Below are positions 26,851 through 32,800 of a stretch of 64,000 nt of DNA, one piece after another (position 1 is the stretch's first letter; each line of letters opens with the position of its first letter). The position numbers were made by a program. The DNA is from an uncultured delta proteobacterium (GTDB lineage: Bacteria; Myxococcota; Myxococcia; Myxococcales; Myxococcaceae), in contig CAWCKH010000004.1 of NCBI GenBank assembly GCA_963796055.1, positions 1,024,001-1,088,000 on the forward strand, read 5' to 3'.

Positions 26851-29800
26851 ACTGGTCACCTTCGTCGACGTGCCCGGGTTCCTCCCCGGCACGGCGCAGG
26901 AGTGGGGCGGGATCATCACCCACGGGGCCAAGCTGCTGTACGCCTTCGCCGAGGCCACGGTCCCGAAGGTGACGGTCATCACCCGGAAGGCGTACGGCGG
27001 GGCCTACGACGTCATGGCCAGCAAGCACATCCGGGCAGACGTGAACTACGCCTGGCCCACGGCGGAGATCGCGGTCATGGGGCCCGAGGGCGCGGTGAAC
27101 ATCATCTTCCGCAACGAGCTGGCGAAGGCGGCGAACCCCGCCGCCGAGCGGGCGCGGCTGGTAGGCGAATACCGCGAAAAGTTCGCAAATCCCTTCAAGG
27201 CCGCCGAGCTGGGGTACATCGACGGGGTGATCCGCCCAGAGCAAACTCGGGAAAAACTGGTGCGGGCGCTGGAGATGCTGAAGGACAAGCGCCAGGAGAA
27301 CCCCGAGCGGAAGCACGGGAACATCCCGCTCTAGGAACATCCCGCTTCAGGGCGGTCTCGTTCCGGACCAGCCGTGCAGGTGTGACAACCGCGCACGATG
27401 TCGCCTGTGACACCCCTGGGGTCCTCGCACGCAACTTCCGGGTGTCTGCCGCCCCGCGGGTCTCGAAGGACTTGCGGGTGGTAGGCATTCGTGTGTCTCA
27501 TGGCGGCGCTGCAGGAGTACTTCTCCAGGGGGACCACATGCACCGCACGGCGAGATTCACCGTCGTCATGCTGCTCAGCAGCCTGGTGGTCATCGGGTGT
27601 GGGCAGGGGGCCGGAGTCGACACTTCCTCCTTCTCGGATCGGCAGATCTTCGAGGGCATCGTCTTCGGTGCCGGTCCGGTGGCGAGCCTGCTCCCGGAGG
27701 CACGCGACCAGCTGCGGCCGGAGCTCTACGTGAAGAGCGGGGGCGAGCTGAGCGCGCTGGCGGACGCACGGGGCGCGGTCATCGACGCGATCGAGCGTGC
27801 CCAGCCTGGCTTCCTCGCGGAATTCGCACGCGCAGCTCGGAGCGGGAATCCCGCTGAAGTACAGGCCATGCTCGCGCGAGCGGCCCGCGCGATCTCCGCA
27901 GCGTCCTCCGCCCTGACCGCGGCCCGCGGCCCGAACGTTCCGGTCGACCTCGTCGCCCGCGGGCCGAACGTCCCCGTCGACACCGCCCGCGGCCCGAACG
28001 TTCCGGTCGACCTCGTCGCCCGCGGGCCGAACGTCCCCGTCGACACCGCCCGCGGCCCGAACGTTCCGGTCGACCTCGTCGCCCGCGGGCCGAACGTCCC
28101 CGTCGACACCGCCCGCGGCCCGAACGTCCCGGTCGACCTCGTCGCCCGCGGCCCGAACGTTCCGGTCGACCTCGTCGCCCGCGGGCCGAACGTCCCCGTC
28201 GACACCGCCCGCGGCCCGAACGTTCCGGTCGACCTCGTCGCCCGTGGGCCGAACGTCCCCGTCGACACCGCCCGCAGCCCGAACGTTCCGGTCGACCTCG
28301 TCGCCCGTGGGCCGAACGTCCCCGTCGACACCGCCCGCAGCCCGAACGTTCCGGTCGACCTCGTCGCCCGTGGGCCGAACGTCCCCGTCGACACCGCCCG
28401 CAGCCCGAACGTTCCGGTCGACCTCGTCGCCCGTGGGCCGAACGTCCCCGTCGACACCGCCCGCAGCCCGAACGTTCCGGTCGACCTCGTCGCCCGTGGG
28501 CCGAACGTCCCCGTCGTGAGCGTGCATCCGGCCTGGAATCTCTTCACCAGCAGGCTCTTCTCCGAGCAGCTCGCCAACTCCGTGGCCATCACGCTCGCTC
28601 AGCGGGGCAGCGAGAACTGAGGGCAAGACCGCGACAGCTGGCGCGGCTGATCGCCGCGGCGATCGTCTTCCTGACGTGCGTCACGTGGCTCGACTCGCCC
28701 CTGCGGCCATCCGCCACCAAGCGGCTGCAGATGCTGGCCGTCGCTCCGCAGTTCTGGGGATTCTTCGCCTCTCCCCGCGAGGAGCGAACCGAGGTTTTCA
28801 GGCTCCGGAACGGAGCCTGGGAGCGTGCCGACGCCCCGCTGGCCGCAACGGCGAACCTCCTCGGTCTCCGCCGGGCGGTGGTGAACCACGGTGCCGAGTT
28901 CCGGACTCTCGAGGCGCAGGTGGGAAACGGGTGGAGTAGCGCCACGCTCACCCCCGAGCAGCTCCCAGACACCGCCGTCGAGCCGGTGGTGGTCCGCAAC
29001 CTCGCACGGCAACCACAGCTCTGCGGCGAGGTCCTTCTCGTCGCGCGGCCACCCCTGCCCTGGGCCTGGGCGCGCTCGAGCAGCAAAGTCGAGCTTCCCA
29101 CCCGGTATGCCCGGTTGAGCATCCGGTGTTGACTCGCAGGGACAGACCCTGGACCAACGTCTACGGCGTCGCACGCTCGGTGCTCGCCCTGGCGACGCTG
29201 CTCACGCTGCTCGCCGATTCGAGCGAACGGCTCTTCCATCCGCTGGTGGTCGATGACCCCGGCGTCTTCGACCGGAGCGCCCTCGCCGGCGCGAGCCTGT
29301 TCTTTCTCGCTCGCAACCACTTGACCGCGGCGAAGCTGCTGGCGATCGCCGTCCTCGCGCTGGTCATCGTCGGCTGGCGACCACGCTTCACCGCACTGCC
29401 GCACTGGTGGATCTCGTACAGCTTCGCAGCATCGGCCTCGATGATCGACGGCGGCGACCAGATCGCCGCGACGCTCACATTGCTCCTCCTTCCCGTCGCG
29501 CTGACCGATCGTCGCTCTTCGCACTGGCGAGGGACCGGAAGCGGCGGTCCCGCTGCCTCCATCGCCGCGCAGACCGGGTGGGTCCTCATCCGGGTGCAGA
29601 TGGCGGTCGTCTATCTGTTCGCGGCGGTGCTGAAGTTTCCGAACGAGGAGTGGGCCAACGGCACCGCGCTGTACTACTGGTGGCGAAACCCCACCTTCGG
29701 CGCCGCGGGTCTGCTCCATCCGGTGACCGACTGGATCGGTCGGACAGTTCTGGTCGTCCCGCTCACCTGGAGCGTTCTGGTGGTCGAGCTATGCCTGGCC

Positions 29801-32800
29801 GCGGCACTGGTCGCTCCACTCAGGTTTCGCAGGATGCTGCTCCCCATCGGGTTGATCTTTCACCTCGGTATCGCAGTCACCCACGGCCTCATCACCTTCG
29901 CCCTCACCATGTCGGCCGCGCTGGTGCTCTACCTCCGCCCGGCCTGGCGACCGTTCGCTCTGCCCGAGCTCATCCGCCGCCCGGTCGCGCGCTCCTCGGA
30001 GCCGGTGGCGCGCGTCACCGTCGCGCCGTGACCCATCCTCGATCAGCGGGGAGCCTGAGGCGCAGGCGATCGTGGATGCTGAACTTTGCGCCCCGAGCAG
30101 CCGCCCGCCCAGCCTTCGACGACCGCCGAGCGGCACGCGTGGATGCTGCAGACCCTGCGTGCCGCCGTGGCCCGGGCCTGTCCGTCCGACCTCGCCGCAC
30201 ACCGCGAGGACCTCGTCCAGGCAGCCCTTCTCCGGGTCCTCGAGCGCGAGGGACGGGGTGAGCAGAACCATGTCCGGACGGCTCCGGGCCGCCTGGGCCG
30301 CCCGTCCTCCCACCTCACCAGGGGCGGATTGCCCGCCGGCAGACGCCATCTGGGAGGCGGTCGCCGGGGATCGGTCCGAGGACGAGGTGCGGACGATGCT
30401 CGCCCACAGCGTCGGCTGTCCGGACTGCTCGGCGCTCTGGCGTCTGGCCCGCGAGCTGCGCAGCGCCGGAGAGGCGGACACTGCGGCAACCCTACCCGCA
30501 GAGCCGGTTCCGCTCCGGCGCCCGTCGGCGGGGTGCTGGCTCGTGGTCGCGGGCACGCTCGCCGCAGCAGCAGTGGTGGTGTTCGCGATCCTGCTCGGCG
30601 ACGGGACACGCGGTCCGTCCCCGGTCGTCCGTGGGACCGAGGAGTCCCGGCTCCGGGCCGATCCGGCCAGCGCGACGCTCGCGCGGGCACATCCGGTCCT
30701 CCGCTGGAGTGCGCACCGGAGGGCAGCCGCTACACCGTGGTGGTCTCCAAGCGTGACCTCACCGTGCTCTACCGGAAGAGCGGTCTGGTGACCTCGGAGC
30801 TCGAGCTCCCGGCCGAGGCGCTCACCGACGTCCCCGCGGGCGGCGAGATCGTCTGGCGGGTGGAGGCGATCGCTCCCGGCGGTCGCCGGATCTCCTCGGA
30901 GGCGTTCCTCAGCCGCGTACAGTAGTGCCCCATCGGGCGGTGGCTTCCCTGCAGCCAATGGTCGGCCGGCTGCAAGCCCCGCACCCCTACCTTGCCCCCC
31001 CTGGGCGGGCGTGAGATCTCCCGGGGCACCGCGAGGTTCGTCATGCGCAAGGACTCCCCGGTCGTCGCCTGCTCCATCGCCGCGCTGATCTTGGTCGTCA
31101 CCGGCGCCGCGCTCGTACCGTCCTCCGCCTGGCGCGCAGCGTCCGTCGTCGCCCGCCTCGCCCCCACGCTGGTCACCACCGCTTCCGCCCACGGGTCGAC
31201 CGCCGCGAGAGCGGCCGGGCTGGGTGTGCGCGCCGCGCCCGGACTGTTCCGCGAGGCTCCCCCGGCCGAGCGCCAGTCCGCGCCTCAGGTCCGGGTGTGC
31301 CGGCGTGACGCCCCGCGTTCGTGCAACCGGCCCGTGGAGTGCCCGCGGCAGATGATCCAGCGGCTGCACCTGATCTTCCCGATCGACGGCTGAGCAGCAG
31401 CCGGTCTCGCCCGACCTCTTCGCCGACCGTGCGTGGGCGAGGGCCCGGACGCTGGCGCCTGTGCGGGGAGGACGCTAGGCAATGGCCGCTCCGTCTGCGC
31501 GTTGTCCCCGGTCACGATGCCTGCACTTCTCCGCCGTCTTCTTCTCGCTCCCATCCCGCGGCTCGCCTGGACCGGCGTCCTCGCGTGGCTGCTGGCGCGG
31601 ATCCTCTTCTGGCTCGCGCCGTCCCTGGCGCGGGCGCCGAACATCCTGCTGACCGGGGCGATCCGGAACGCGGTGATGACCGTGATCGTCTTCTCGCTCG
31701 GCCTCTGGCTCTTCGAGCGGAAGACGCCGCGTGAGGCGGGGCTCGCACCGGCGCGCGCGGTGCCGGACACGGTGCGCGGGTTTCTCCTCGGTGCGGCGTT
31801 GCTCACCGCGGTCACCGGGGTGCTGGCGCTGGCAGGCTGCTACCACCTGGTCGGGTGGGCGCCGGTGCCGGAGGGCACGACGCGGGGCGCGCTCCTCGGC
31901 CGGGTGCTGCTGCTCTTCTTCGCGGTCGCCATCTTCGAGGAGGTGGCGGTCCGCGGCATCGTCTTCCGCCTGCTCGAGCAGGGCATCGGGACCTGGCTGG
32001 CCATCCTCCTGAGCGCGCTCATGTTCGGCTTCGGTCACCGGGGAAATCCGGGCGCGAGCTGGGCGAGCAGCGTGGCGATCGCCGTCGAGGCCGGGGCGCT
32101 GCTCGCCGCCGCCTACGTCGCCACCCGCTCGCTGTGGGTGCCCATCGGGCTGCACTGGGCCTGGAACCTCTTCGAGGGGCCGGTGTGGGGCGCGCGCGTG
32201 TCGGGCAACGACCTCGGCGTCCTCGCCCAGGCGACGTTCCCCGGTCCGACCCTGCTGACCGGTGGAGCGTTCGGGCCGGAGGCCGGGCTTCCGGCGATGG
32301 TGCTCGGGACAGCGCTGGCGGTGGGGTTCCTCGTCGTCGCCATCCGCCGTGAGCAGATCGTCACCCCGGGCTGGATGCGCTGGATCGCCCGCCGCCTGCA
32401 TCGCGACCAGGGTGCGACCTCCGGTCCGGCGCCGGAGCCGGCGGCCGTCGTGCCACCCTCGGCGGTGTGAGCGCCAGTCTGACGGCTGGAGCGGCGTTTT
32501 AGCTGGCCTCGCCCACGAAGCGCGCCACCGCTTTCCAGACCGCCTCGAAGTGCTCGCGATCGAATCCGGTCCCGGACGCGACCCAGTCGAAGTGCGGGGG
32601 GACGTGGCGTGGCCGGTGGAAGTGCCCGAGCACGTCGTGGTGGTCCGCCCAGACCGCCGAGACGAGCTGACCGCGCACCTGGCTGAGGGTGGGAACGATG
32701 CCGTCGTTGGCCCGGTGGTCGGGGATGCTCCCGTACGCGCGACGGAGGAACTTCCGGTGCTCCGGCGAGAGCCGGCGAGGTGGGTCGTCGGGTCGTCCGC

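Follow-up and report, generated by a model that had tools for sequence, protein, structure and literature searches.

What do SdpA and SdpB do to their substrate? The question is raised by a locus in the window studied here (64,000 nt of an uncultured soil myxobacterium of the Myxococcaceae, assembly GCA_963796055.1, contig CAWCKH010000004.1), in which an SdpC-family lipoprotein carries 19 tandem units between its leader and follower and is followed by sdpA and then sdpB. In the literature covered, as far as its available text goes, the action of SdpA and SdpB on the substrate is described just as "maturation", and their known substrates are hydrophobic and hard to analyze. This locus offers a soluble substrate of 9–11 residues in 19 copies, with an invariant three-residue motif pointing at the site of action. 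Its features, in window coordinates, are as follows.

27380–27396, + strand: conserved upstream motif, candidate regulator site (alignment of eight upstream regions).
27468–27498, + strand: two conserved blocks, GACTTG and TCGTGTGTCT, candidate promoter (in 8/8 aligned loci).
27527–27533: purine-rich ribosome-binding site of sdpC, from sequence.
27538–28620, + strand: sdpC, 360 aa (ATG at 27538, stop at 28618–28620).
27538–27600, + strand: signal peptide, sdpC residues 1–21, with lipobox VIGC and Cys21.
27601–27924, + strand: leader, residues 22–129, helical scaffold domain (TIGR04032, E 2e-15, below cut-off).
27925–28521, + strand: 19 tandem units R[GS]PNVPVD(LVA/TA), residues 130–328, in the place of the hydrophobic core.
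28522–28620, + strand: follower, residues 329–360 and stop codon; helices, probably packing onto the leader.
28617–29132, + strand: sdpA, 171 aa, from an uncertain CTG start that overlaps the sdpC stop (over cut-off for TIGR04034 and PF17418).
29126–30031, + strand: sdpB, 301 aa, HTTM membrane protein (TIGR04033 over cut-off).
29447–29458, + strand: sdpB D108-G-G-D111 (HMM alignment).
29633–29635, + strand: sdpB K170 (HMM alignment).
31517–32470: CAAX protease.
32499–33623, strand opposite to the sdp genes: hydrolase, past a variable insert.

The translated gene bears out the architecture described in an earlier note on this DNA, an SdpC leader and follower flanking 19 units of 9–11 residues: ten units have 11 aa (R[GS]PNVPVDLVA), eight have 10 aa (RGPNVPVDTA), and the final one has 9 aa. 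With TRF the array has a period of 63 bp (96% matches, score 734). Judged by sequence, an assembly loop seems unlikely, as a 3.66-Mb contig surrounds the array and the differences among its units are ordered; in a six-frame scan of the genome (5.5 Mb) the array is the sole run of at least three N-[LIVM]-P motifs spaced by 32 aa or less. Among sequencing runs, four DNA runs of a single study were listed as carriers, with shares of 0.20–0.41, and no RNA run was listed. Among the family matches claimed, those of the overlapping genes sdpA (61.3 bits, NCBIfam cut-off 53.1) and sdpB (247.9 bits, cut-off 178.4) hold, as expected of an SdpABC system, while the SdpC match at residues 29–125 (56.9 bits) falls below its cut-off of 99.2; the precursor aligns at both ends with single-core SdpC. 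The precursor had also been called cysteine-free, which is true of the core only, because the lipoprotein signal carries Cys21, kept in at least 90% of 26 aligned SdpC rows and missing from the long-unit subtype (L026, L027). In an AlphaFold2 model of the ortholog L021 the leader (residues 31–120, pLDDT 93–98) and the follower (pLDDT 94–97) are confidently folded and the array is a low-confidence coil. Follower residues L340, F341, E343, Q344, L345, S348 and A350 are each present in at least 90% of rows. A fold search with the precursor scaffold gave no clear match (best Z 5.8).

As in Bacillus subtilis SdpABC (SDP toxin) and YitPOM, an exported precursor with an internal core is encoded together with SdpA and SdpB. 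Here, by contrast, 19 polar Pro-rich units take the place of a single hydrophobic peptide of 42 residues, so that the membrane-acting hydrophobic core of an SDP-type toxin is lacking; the lipoprotein signal, the sdpC-A-B gene order and the SdpC score also set the locus apart, and the SdpI immunity gene (PF13630) had no match in the 98.5% complete genome, with a positive B. subtilis control. The single hydrophobic core ascribed to other Myxococcaceae was confirmed at 16 of 19 loci of other genera; two loci (L017, L018) have polar quasi-periodic cores, and one (L015) had no SdpC match. The locus also shows that cores of several kinds (hydrophobic, Asn-pentad, Tyr/Asp, Pro-rich multi-unit) are accommodated by the SdpC leader and follower, a general scaffold of use in peptide engineering. 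Multi-core precursors with many near-identical units are familiar from cyanobactins, graspetides, fungal KEPs, yeast alpha-factor and insect apidaecin. Those differ from the present one, which shares no enzymes with them, has no constant protease site between units, and belongs to a folded domain that is exported and whose leader and follower enclose the array. As stated earlier, no multi-core SdpC was found in the literature searched (main texts, mostly outside subscription journals).

The constancy of Asn-aliphatic-Pro extends to all 26 close homologs (24 in the earlier note), each with tandem N-[LIVM]-P units, including arrays of 17 and 18. Altogether 282 such units were collected from 40 arrays with periods of 8–29 aa; a unit is skipped only across one frameshift, and Cys is absent from every core. 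Within 22 arrays the three codons of the motif carry 27 additional synonymous codons and no amino-acid changes (the search pattern dictates Asn and Pro but leaves the aliphatic position free), compared to 16 and 17 amino-acid changes at positions +3 and +4. The motif is under protein-level selection, and repeated cores with a selected invariant motif are what is expected of a multi-core RiPP. Arg or Lys occupies position –3 in 62% of 187 distinct unit contexts, Asp or Glu occupies position +4 in 47%, and no cleavage residue is constant across all arrays; in the allele type P0035/L077 most units have neither Arg nor Lys. Unit lengths are mixed inside a single array, and copy numbers range from 1–2 to 24, short-read counts being unreliable. 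In all 21 complete metagenome precursors with at least 230 bases downstream, sdpA follows, and SdpB was found in 11 of 12 other genomes of the genus. The locus is characteristic of a single uncultured genus of Myxococcaceae.

By profile comparison, SdpB is a homolog of the vitamin K-dependent carboxylase (GGCX), a point absent from the earlier note and more informative than its disulfide argument. Its profile matches GGCX in PDB with E-values of 6e-6 and 6e-10, while the single sequence had no match there; the HTTM domain scores 27.6 bits (cut-off 27.7). In a Foldseek search all ranks 1–14 were GGCX, with E-values of just 3e-3 or weaker, and the VIA-align superposition (Z 8.4, rmsd 4.1, 179 aligned residues) tied with that of an unrelated-looking chain (Z 8.8). 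In the HMM alignment, with residues counted by hand, K170 corresponds to K218, W176 to W223, A166 to A214 and F258 to F299, so that the catalytic Lys and quinol-pocket residues of the carboxylase family are present; D-G-G-D stands in place of N158-N159-H160-S161, and the glutamate pocket N159/H160 is aligned to Gly109-Gly110. In the available text of 10.1101/2025.02.09.637231, K218 of GGCX is catalytic and N159/H160 bind Glu. GGCX further differs from the present system, which comprises two small proteins and a substrate without a Glu-rich domain. The Lys and Trp are kept in 33/33 repeat-clade reads, duplicates included. We also marked W176, H246 and F258 of SdpB.

SdpA has a single hydrophobic helix at the N terminus and a domain that is likely on the outside. 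It is probably the counterpart of DUF5819 and may supply the substrate-binding half of a split carboxylase; its profile match to DUF5819 has just 44% probability (E 2e-4; atlas lead 0.83). SdpA profiles had no match in PDB, and the DUF5819 profile no useful one. The available text of 10.64898/2026.08.19.745780 models DUF5819 + HTTM pairs as a split carboxylase. These resemble SdpAB in having a small partner beside an HTTM protein, with a motif common to DUF5819 and SdpA, and differ in forming a separate clade in the tree and in that the same text names no peptide substrate. No fused SdpB of 686–2000 aa was found in a weak test, one blind to shorter fusions. Complex prediction for L021 SdpB, SdpA and precursor gave scores of 0.14, 0.37 and 0.01 against a mark of 0.32 and carries no weight either way.

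The repeat-clade SdpB proteins form one group (98/100) with a long stem (1.02) and short tips, and 24 SdpB and 15 SdpA columns conserved in other myxobacteria are altered in it. Together with low dN/dS (sdpB 0.14–0.25, sdpA 0.17–0.31, SdpC leader 0.22–0.32) this indicates that the enzymes changed along with the core while selection on them continued. At position 165, 13 of 14 other myxobacterial SdpB have His and 10/10 repeat-clade rows have Phe, so the chemistry may have changed.

The array is very probably the selected substrate of SdpAB. As a tentative reading of the whole, we propose a three-gene ribosomal peptide system where SdpC, by its lipobox, would be exported and lipid-anchored, and its leader and follower, as in the ortholog model, would form one helical scaffold from which the repeat array loops out. 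SdpB, by homology, and SdpA, putatively, would form a split vitamin K-dependent carboxylase, in which Lys170, menaquinol and O2 would yield a strong base, as in the carboxylase; menB is present in the genome. We propose the backbone alpha-hydrogen as the target of this base because Gly-Gly replaces the glutamate pocket; reprotonation would leave D-residues in each N-aliphatic-P-aliphatic motif. Housekeeping proteases would then release peptides of 9–11 residues, probably at Arg or Lys 2–4 residues before Asn, so that each precursor would give many copies of a species-specific peptide. Release of the units one by one is somewhat better than an even bet, and epimerization as the SdpAB chemistry, proposed by analogy, stands at about even chances. 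The product would more probably act as a signal or as a competitor peptide directed at an enzyme than as a toxin that depolarizes membranes.

The epimerization reading has two sources, the linaridins and the NX5N ladders seen in other SdpC cores. Linaridin clusters encode an HTTM protein (PMC9927463), and linaridins contain several D-residues, with grmL a candidate epimerase (PMC10373908); the bacterial GGCX homolog MloH acts at an alpha-carbon (PMC12186529). Like LinG/LinH with LinL and LinE, the present system has an HTTM membrane protein and a small partner that would act on a ribosomal peptide and, if the epimerization reading holds, products with D-residues, a likeness drawn from the HTTM domain and PMC9927463. 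Unlike linaridin clusters, the three-gene unit lacks the LinE alpha/beta hydrolase, and its precursor is exported, scaffolded and multi-unit. It also has no Thr-rich core for dehydrobutyrine: Thr, Ser and Cys are absent from 6/19 units here and from 18/18 units of P0007. Thr/Ser dehydration was rejected as the common reaction. NX5N is a mark of the beta-helix in D-residue-rich polytheonamides (PMC10849128). At least two NX5N pairs occur in 14 of 114 hydrophobic SdpC cores, compared to 0.95 in shuffles (maximum 5 in 500); even one pair occurs in only 26 of 114, and the ladders are not found in the repeat clade, whose Pro-rich units are unable to form an NX5N-type beta-helix, which counts against the analogy. 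A broader possibility, more doubtful, is that SdpAB would be an extracytoplasmic menaquinol/O2-powered peptide epimerase, that the whole SdpC family, including B. subtilis SDP, would be D-residue peptides, many forming polytheonamide-like beta-helices, and that the enzyme would be re-tooled here for up to 24 short D-peptides per precursor. Epimerization, if true, would be a new radical-SAM-free route to D-peptides, and the SDP structure would need re-examination. Nothing relevant linking SdpB with vitamin K, or SdpC with epimerization, was found in the literature searched, mostly outside subscription journals.

Some alternatives concern the fate of the array. It may remain uncut, as one long modified Pro-rich loop on a lipid-anchored scaffold, a surface-displayed polymer used for adhesion, as a kin label, or as a metal or phage decoy (epimerization could still apply). 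This is rather unlikely, given that the B. subtilis core is excised from within SdpC (C141–S182 of 203 aa, in the available text of PMC6818787), and that mixed unit lengths and variable copy numbers fit discrete units; it agrees with the lipobox anchor, the loop-closing follower, and the lack of a cleavage residue common to all arrays. The three-gene unit also contains no peptidase, and the nearby CAAX protease belongs to the backbone. The latter is not favored as a dedicated peptidase, although it could still cut the product: genus g43, where no SdpB match was obtained, has close orthologs of it, and between it and sdpB lie as many as 7 kb of variable DNA. Least probable by far is loss of the toxin core in a locus now decaying, with the array arising neutrally by slippage: units are homogenized within arrays, copy number varies, and the adjoining ECF sigma gene is broken in this genome, but dN/dS of 0.14–0.32 for all three genes and purely synonymous motif changes within arrays largely refute decay, and SdpB persists in the genus, as does the motif in 40 arrays whose units otherwise differ.

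Others concern the chemistry. Against a true carboxylase, mature SDP reportedly shows no mass gain beyond a disulfide; moreover, most SdpC cores are aliphatic, with no constant acceptor, and the Glu-binding residues are Gly in SdpB. Addition of CO2 at the alpha position of the invariant Asn, or of the frequent +4 Asp, giving aminomalonate-type metal-binding units, is therefore unlikely, even with the retained catalytic Lys, the modelled DUF5819/HTTM system and the precedent of MloH, which alpha-carboxylates Asp (PMC12186529). Similarly low is the probability that SdpAB just cuts or chaperones the precursor with unchanged stereochemistry, N-aliphatic-P being the cleavage signal, e.g., through Asn cyclization freeing peptides with a protected X-Pro start. 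SdpAB is needed to process SdpC to SDP (available text of PMC6818787), an invariant motif between free flanks is compatible with a cut site, and no other peptidase is in the unit; yet the conserved SdpB residues match a quinol site and no known protease, and just 3 of 114 hydrophobic cores, linkers included, contain N-[LIVM]-P, which is thus not the cut site of the SdpC family.

A conflict with a disulfide role of SdpAB, raised earlier, proves weak, as 67 of the 114 ordinary hydrophobic cores are also Cys-free. The SDP disulfide is said to form without SdpAB, in a 2013 paper on these proteins. In their available text, PMC6818787, PMC13343845 and PMC6963621 give SdpAB a processing or maturation role and PMC3924187 calls it a putative exporter, with disulfide formation named in none of the four. 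This locus offers an easy route to the function of these enzymes, which are related to the human vitamin K clotting enzyme.

The sdpC-A-B order is kept in the genus, as previously noted. The carboxyltransferase gene beside it is chromosomal backbone: three of four loci of a related genus carry it, with no sdp genes, at a distance of approximately 5.7 kb from that CAAX-protease gene. As a backbone gene it was rejected as the CO2 or carboxyl donor. A scan for sigma-70 promoters and terminators was at chance level, with no sigma-70 match at the two conserved blocks upstream of sdpC. The candidate regulator site is an inverted repeat, GTGTGAC-N3-GTCACAC, in most relatives, and its right arm is decayed here.

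The sdpC gene encodes a 360-residue precursor, in which leader and follower enclose 19 tandem units (residues 130–328) of the R[GS]PNVPVD(LVA/TA) type, ten of them 11 aa long, eight 10 aa, and the terminal one 9 aa. The array DNA has a period of 63 bp. The repeat core described in the earlier note is confirmed at its full unit number, with both SdpA and SdpB over the NCBIfam cut-offs; the SdpC family match of the precursor (residues 29–125, 56.9 bits) is below the cut-off of 99.2. The locus comprises, in window positions:

27380–27498, inverted repeat upstream of sdpC with a pair of promoter-like blocks, conserved in 8/8 loci of the genus
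27538–28620, sdpC, repeat-bearing precursor
28617–29132, sdpA, overlapping sdpC and sdpB, SdpA above NCBIfam cut-off
29126–30031, sdpB, overlapping sdpA, SdpB above NCBIfam cut-off

A Gly-to-Ser switch and a codon switch are confined to the second half of the array, which is internal to a 3.66-Mb contig; given these ordered differences and this position, an assembly loop seems improbable. The genome has one sdpC-A-B locus and one N-aliphatic-P array. The precursor also contains a lipobox with Cys21, absent from the earlier note; of the 26 aligned rows, at least 90% retain it. As a guess, an ECF sigma factor may recognize the upstream region.

Downstream of sdpB, the ECF sigma and anti-sigma genes are broken (30086–30945). 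Compared to locus L067, which has this pair and two large genes in intact form, the region lacks approximately 350 bp near 30282 and 5.8 kb near 30945; the block is missing from two other loci (L031, L038). Other repeats in the window are found in a Pro-rich RDD-family gene at 20245–22800 (a 66-bp repeat, coding for 22 aa, in ten copies at 21276–21928), in a secreted-looking Gly/Thr-rich ORF with 8-aa repeats at 33954–34802 (minus strand), and at 41758–41939 (2.2 copies of a near-perfect 82-bp direct repeat).

N-[LIVM]-P repeats, ascribed to all homologs in the earlier note, are indeed present in every one of the 26 homologs that the protein search gave. Of the 12 other genomes of the genus, 11 contain SdpB, and the one lacking it is 68% complete. 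The scan of species genomes yielded ten loci, all titled as Myxococcaceae, Myxococcota, or uncultured delta proteobacterium MAGs, with units visible in nine and the remaining one ending before the first full unit. Among 40 metagenome loci, 33 have at least two units, two are cut after one unit, two are complete with one unit, two stop before the array, and one is a weak, unrelated-looking match. As 14 metagenome contigs break off within the array, and assemblies of one near-identical allele vary from one to four units, copy numbers from short reads are unreliable. All 21 complete metagenome precursors with enough downstream DNA are followed by sdpA. In genus loci reaching the carboxyltransferase gene, sdpC-A-B is always 3′ of it, and in three out of four loci of a related genus this gene and a CAAX-protease gene flank other genes, which indicates that sdpC-A-B is an insertion into the chromosomal backbone. 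The G151 MAG has two frameshifted sdpC-A-B loci (L041, L042) with shared flanks and differing units, the probable cause being two strains binned together and errors in the reads.

In a set of 40 precursors, some near-duplicates, there are 282 units, none with Cys, their periods ranging from 8 to 29 aa. No units are skipped except over one frameshift, and this regular spacing means that none was overlooked for want of Asn or Pro. In 187 distinct contexts, Asn is followed by Leu (48%), Val (26%), or Ile (25%), Pro by Val or Ile (71%), with Asp at +4 in 37% and Arg or Lys at −3 in 62%. In within-array comparisons (22 arrays), 27 extra synonymous codons occur at the three motif positions, where the amino acids never change (Asn and Pro being fixed by the search pattern used), compared to 16 changes at +3 and 17 at +4. 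The dN/dS ratio is 0.14–0.25 for sdpB, 0.17–0.31 for sdpA, 0.22–0.32 for the sdpC leader, and 0.08–0.10 for the carboxyltransferase gene. In the AlphaFold2 model of a shorter ortholog (L021), pLDDT is above 90 in leader and follower and approximately 50 or less in the array, and we infer that leader and follower form one scaffold with the core looped out; a fold search with the scaffold model matched no known fold. Members of a Pro/Arg-rich subtype with units of 25–29 aa (loci L026, L027, L028, L099–L102; homologs P0033, P0038) lack the lipobox wherever their start can be read, and may resemble insect proline-rich antimicrobial peptide precursors.

The only PDB match of a 24-sequence SdpB profile is the vitamin K-dependent carboxylase GGCX (E 6e-6), and a broader profile of HTTM, the membrane domain common to both proteins, matches GGCX at E 6e-10 across approximately 240 positions. 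With the SdpB model (pLDDT 85), Foldseek ranks 1–14 are all GGCX at probability 1.0, the E-values being only 3e-3 or weaker; VIA-align superposes 179 residues at rmsd 4.1 with Z 8.4, a tie with one further chain. SdpB residues K170, W176, A166, H246, and F258, invariant in 24/24 rows, correspond in the profile alignment to K218, W223, A214, H287, and F299 of GGCX, whose N158-N159-H160-S161 is aligned to D108-G-G-D111 (matches counted along printed alignments). In GGCX, the catalytic residue is K218, the vitamin K site is lined by W223, F299, and A214, and the Glu carboxylate is bound by N159 and H160 (10.1101/2025.02.09.637231). As the first four are matched and N159/H160 replaced, SdpB looks to have retained the quinol chemistry and not the Glu pocket. 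We withhold the class of proven carboxylase. menB is present in the genome. In the repeat clade, SdpB forms a long stem with short tips in the tree and has lost a Cys pair, with His165 changed to Phe; SdpA has also lost a Cys pair, and the flanks of its conserved W-x-F-F motif are altered.

The profile search identified 2069 SdpC-like representatives, and the 150 matches listed, biased to relatives of the query, comprise 114 hydrophobic cores, 13 N-aliphatic-P repeats, 15 cores below the hydrophobicity threshold, and 8 not delimited. Among these matches, discrete near-identical units are seen only in the repeat genus; of the 15 low-hydrophobicity cores, four have Asn at every fifth residue and one is Tyr/Asp-periodic. 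Two loci with such cores and sdpAB lie in other Myxococcaceae genera (L017, L018), so periodic polar cores arose more than once. Among other myxobacterial precursors, Asn pentads (up to approximately 20) or Tyr/Asp periodicity are observed at L017:3055–3840 (minus strand), in P0036, P0045, P0051, and P0061, and at L018:3051–3728 (minus strand); the SdpB sequences that belong to them cluster together (95/78). The listed hydrophobic cores have no Cys in 67 and one in 32 cases out of 114, hence a Cys-free core is not special. In the same listed cores, an Asn–Asn spacing of six is enriched (58 vs. 9.9 shuffled): 26/114 have at least one NX5N pair (8.5 expected) and 14/114 at least two (0.95 expected, with no more than 5 in any of 500 shuffles), although, computed on related sequences, this enrichment is not a formal probability. 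Such ladders are carried by, among others, P0048, P0052, P0069, P0086, P0101, P0108, P0120, P0129, P0133, P0158, P0159, and L109:1582–2259; in P0120 and P0159, Cys/Gly/Gln repeats precede the hydrophobic core. We know of no radical-SAM epimerase for the SdpC family.

Mature SDP, the B. subtilis toxin, reportedly has no mass change other than a disulfide. MloH alpha-carboxylates Asp (PMC12186529), so the family is able to act at the alpha-carbon; an HTTM protein is also encoded in linaridin clusters (PMC9927463; 10.1101/2020.07.09.196543), several linaridins contain D-residues, with grmL a candidate epimerase (PMC10373908), and polytheonamides have NX5N as their beta-helix motif (PMC10849128). 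The present locus is not classed as a linaridin one; the putative linaridin link was checked in these papers. Combining the MloH reaction, linaridin D-residues, NX5N, and the SDP mass, the best single guess, to which we give an even chance, is that SdpAB would epimerize residues of the precursor core in a mass-neutral way. Carboxylation and cleavage are less probable alternatives. Many units contain neither Thr nor Ser nor Cys, which rules out Thr dehydration as the common reaction. The earlier argument that a Cys-free multi-core precursor does not fit a disulfide role of SdpAB carries no weight: in the available text of PMC6818787, PMC13343845, PMC6963621, PMC5719810, and PMC3924187 the role is processing, maturation, production, or export, with disulfide formation not named, and that of PMC10458515 has nothing on SdpAB and disulfide formation.

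We assign the locus to the SdpABC system and set it apart from the SDP toxin. A profile search gave no SdpI match in the genome, and with the hydrophobic core missing as well, an SDP-like membrane toxin is an unlikely product. Since SDP is excised from within SdpC (PMC6818787), it is plausible that single units would be cut out of the array as peptides. Neither a constant cut site across arrays nor a peptidase in the sdp gene cluster was found, which makes an array staying uncut as a surface loop a real rival to single-unit release. A literature search, mostly of papers free of subscription, found no repeat-core SdpC and no link between SdpB and vitamin K chemistry; the locus makes the SdpAB reaction testable.

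SdpA weakly resembles DUF5819 (profile match 44%; atlas 0.83), which together with HTTM has been modelled as an MloH-like split GGCX (10.64898/2026.08.19.745780). At eight Myxococcaceae loci (L046–L049, L051–L054), DUF5819-type and HTTM gene pairs adjoin small secreted precursor-like genes of 85–125 aa, whose cores are rich in Ile/Tyr/Glu or in Ala and which share a C-terminal D-x-x-[FY]-D end; those tested have no Pfam or NCBIfam matches. This is a sibling peptide system, and the same layout is observed on a Streptomyces plasmid (L108).
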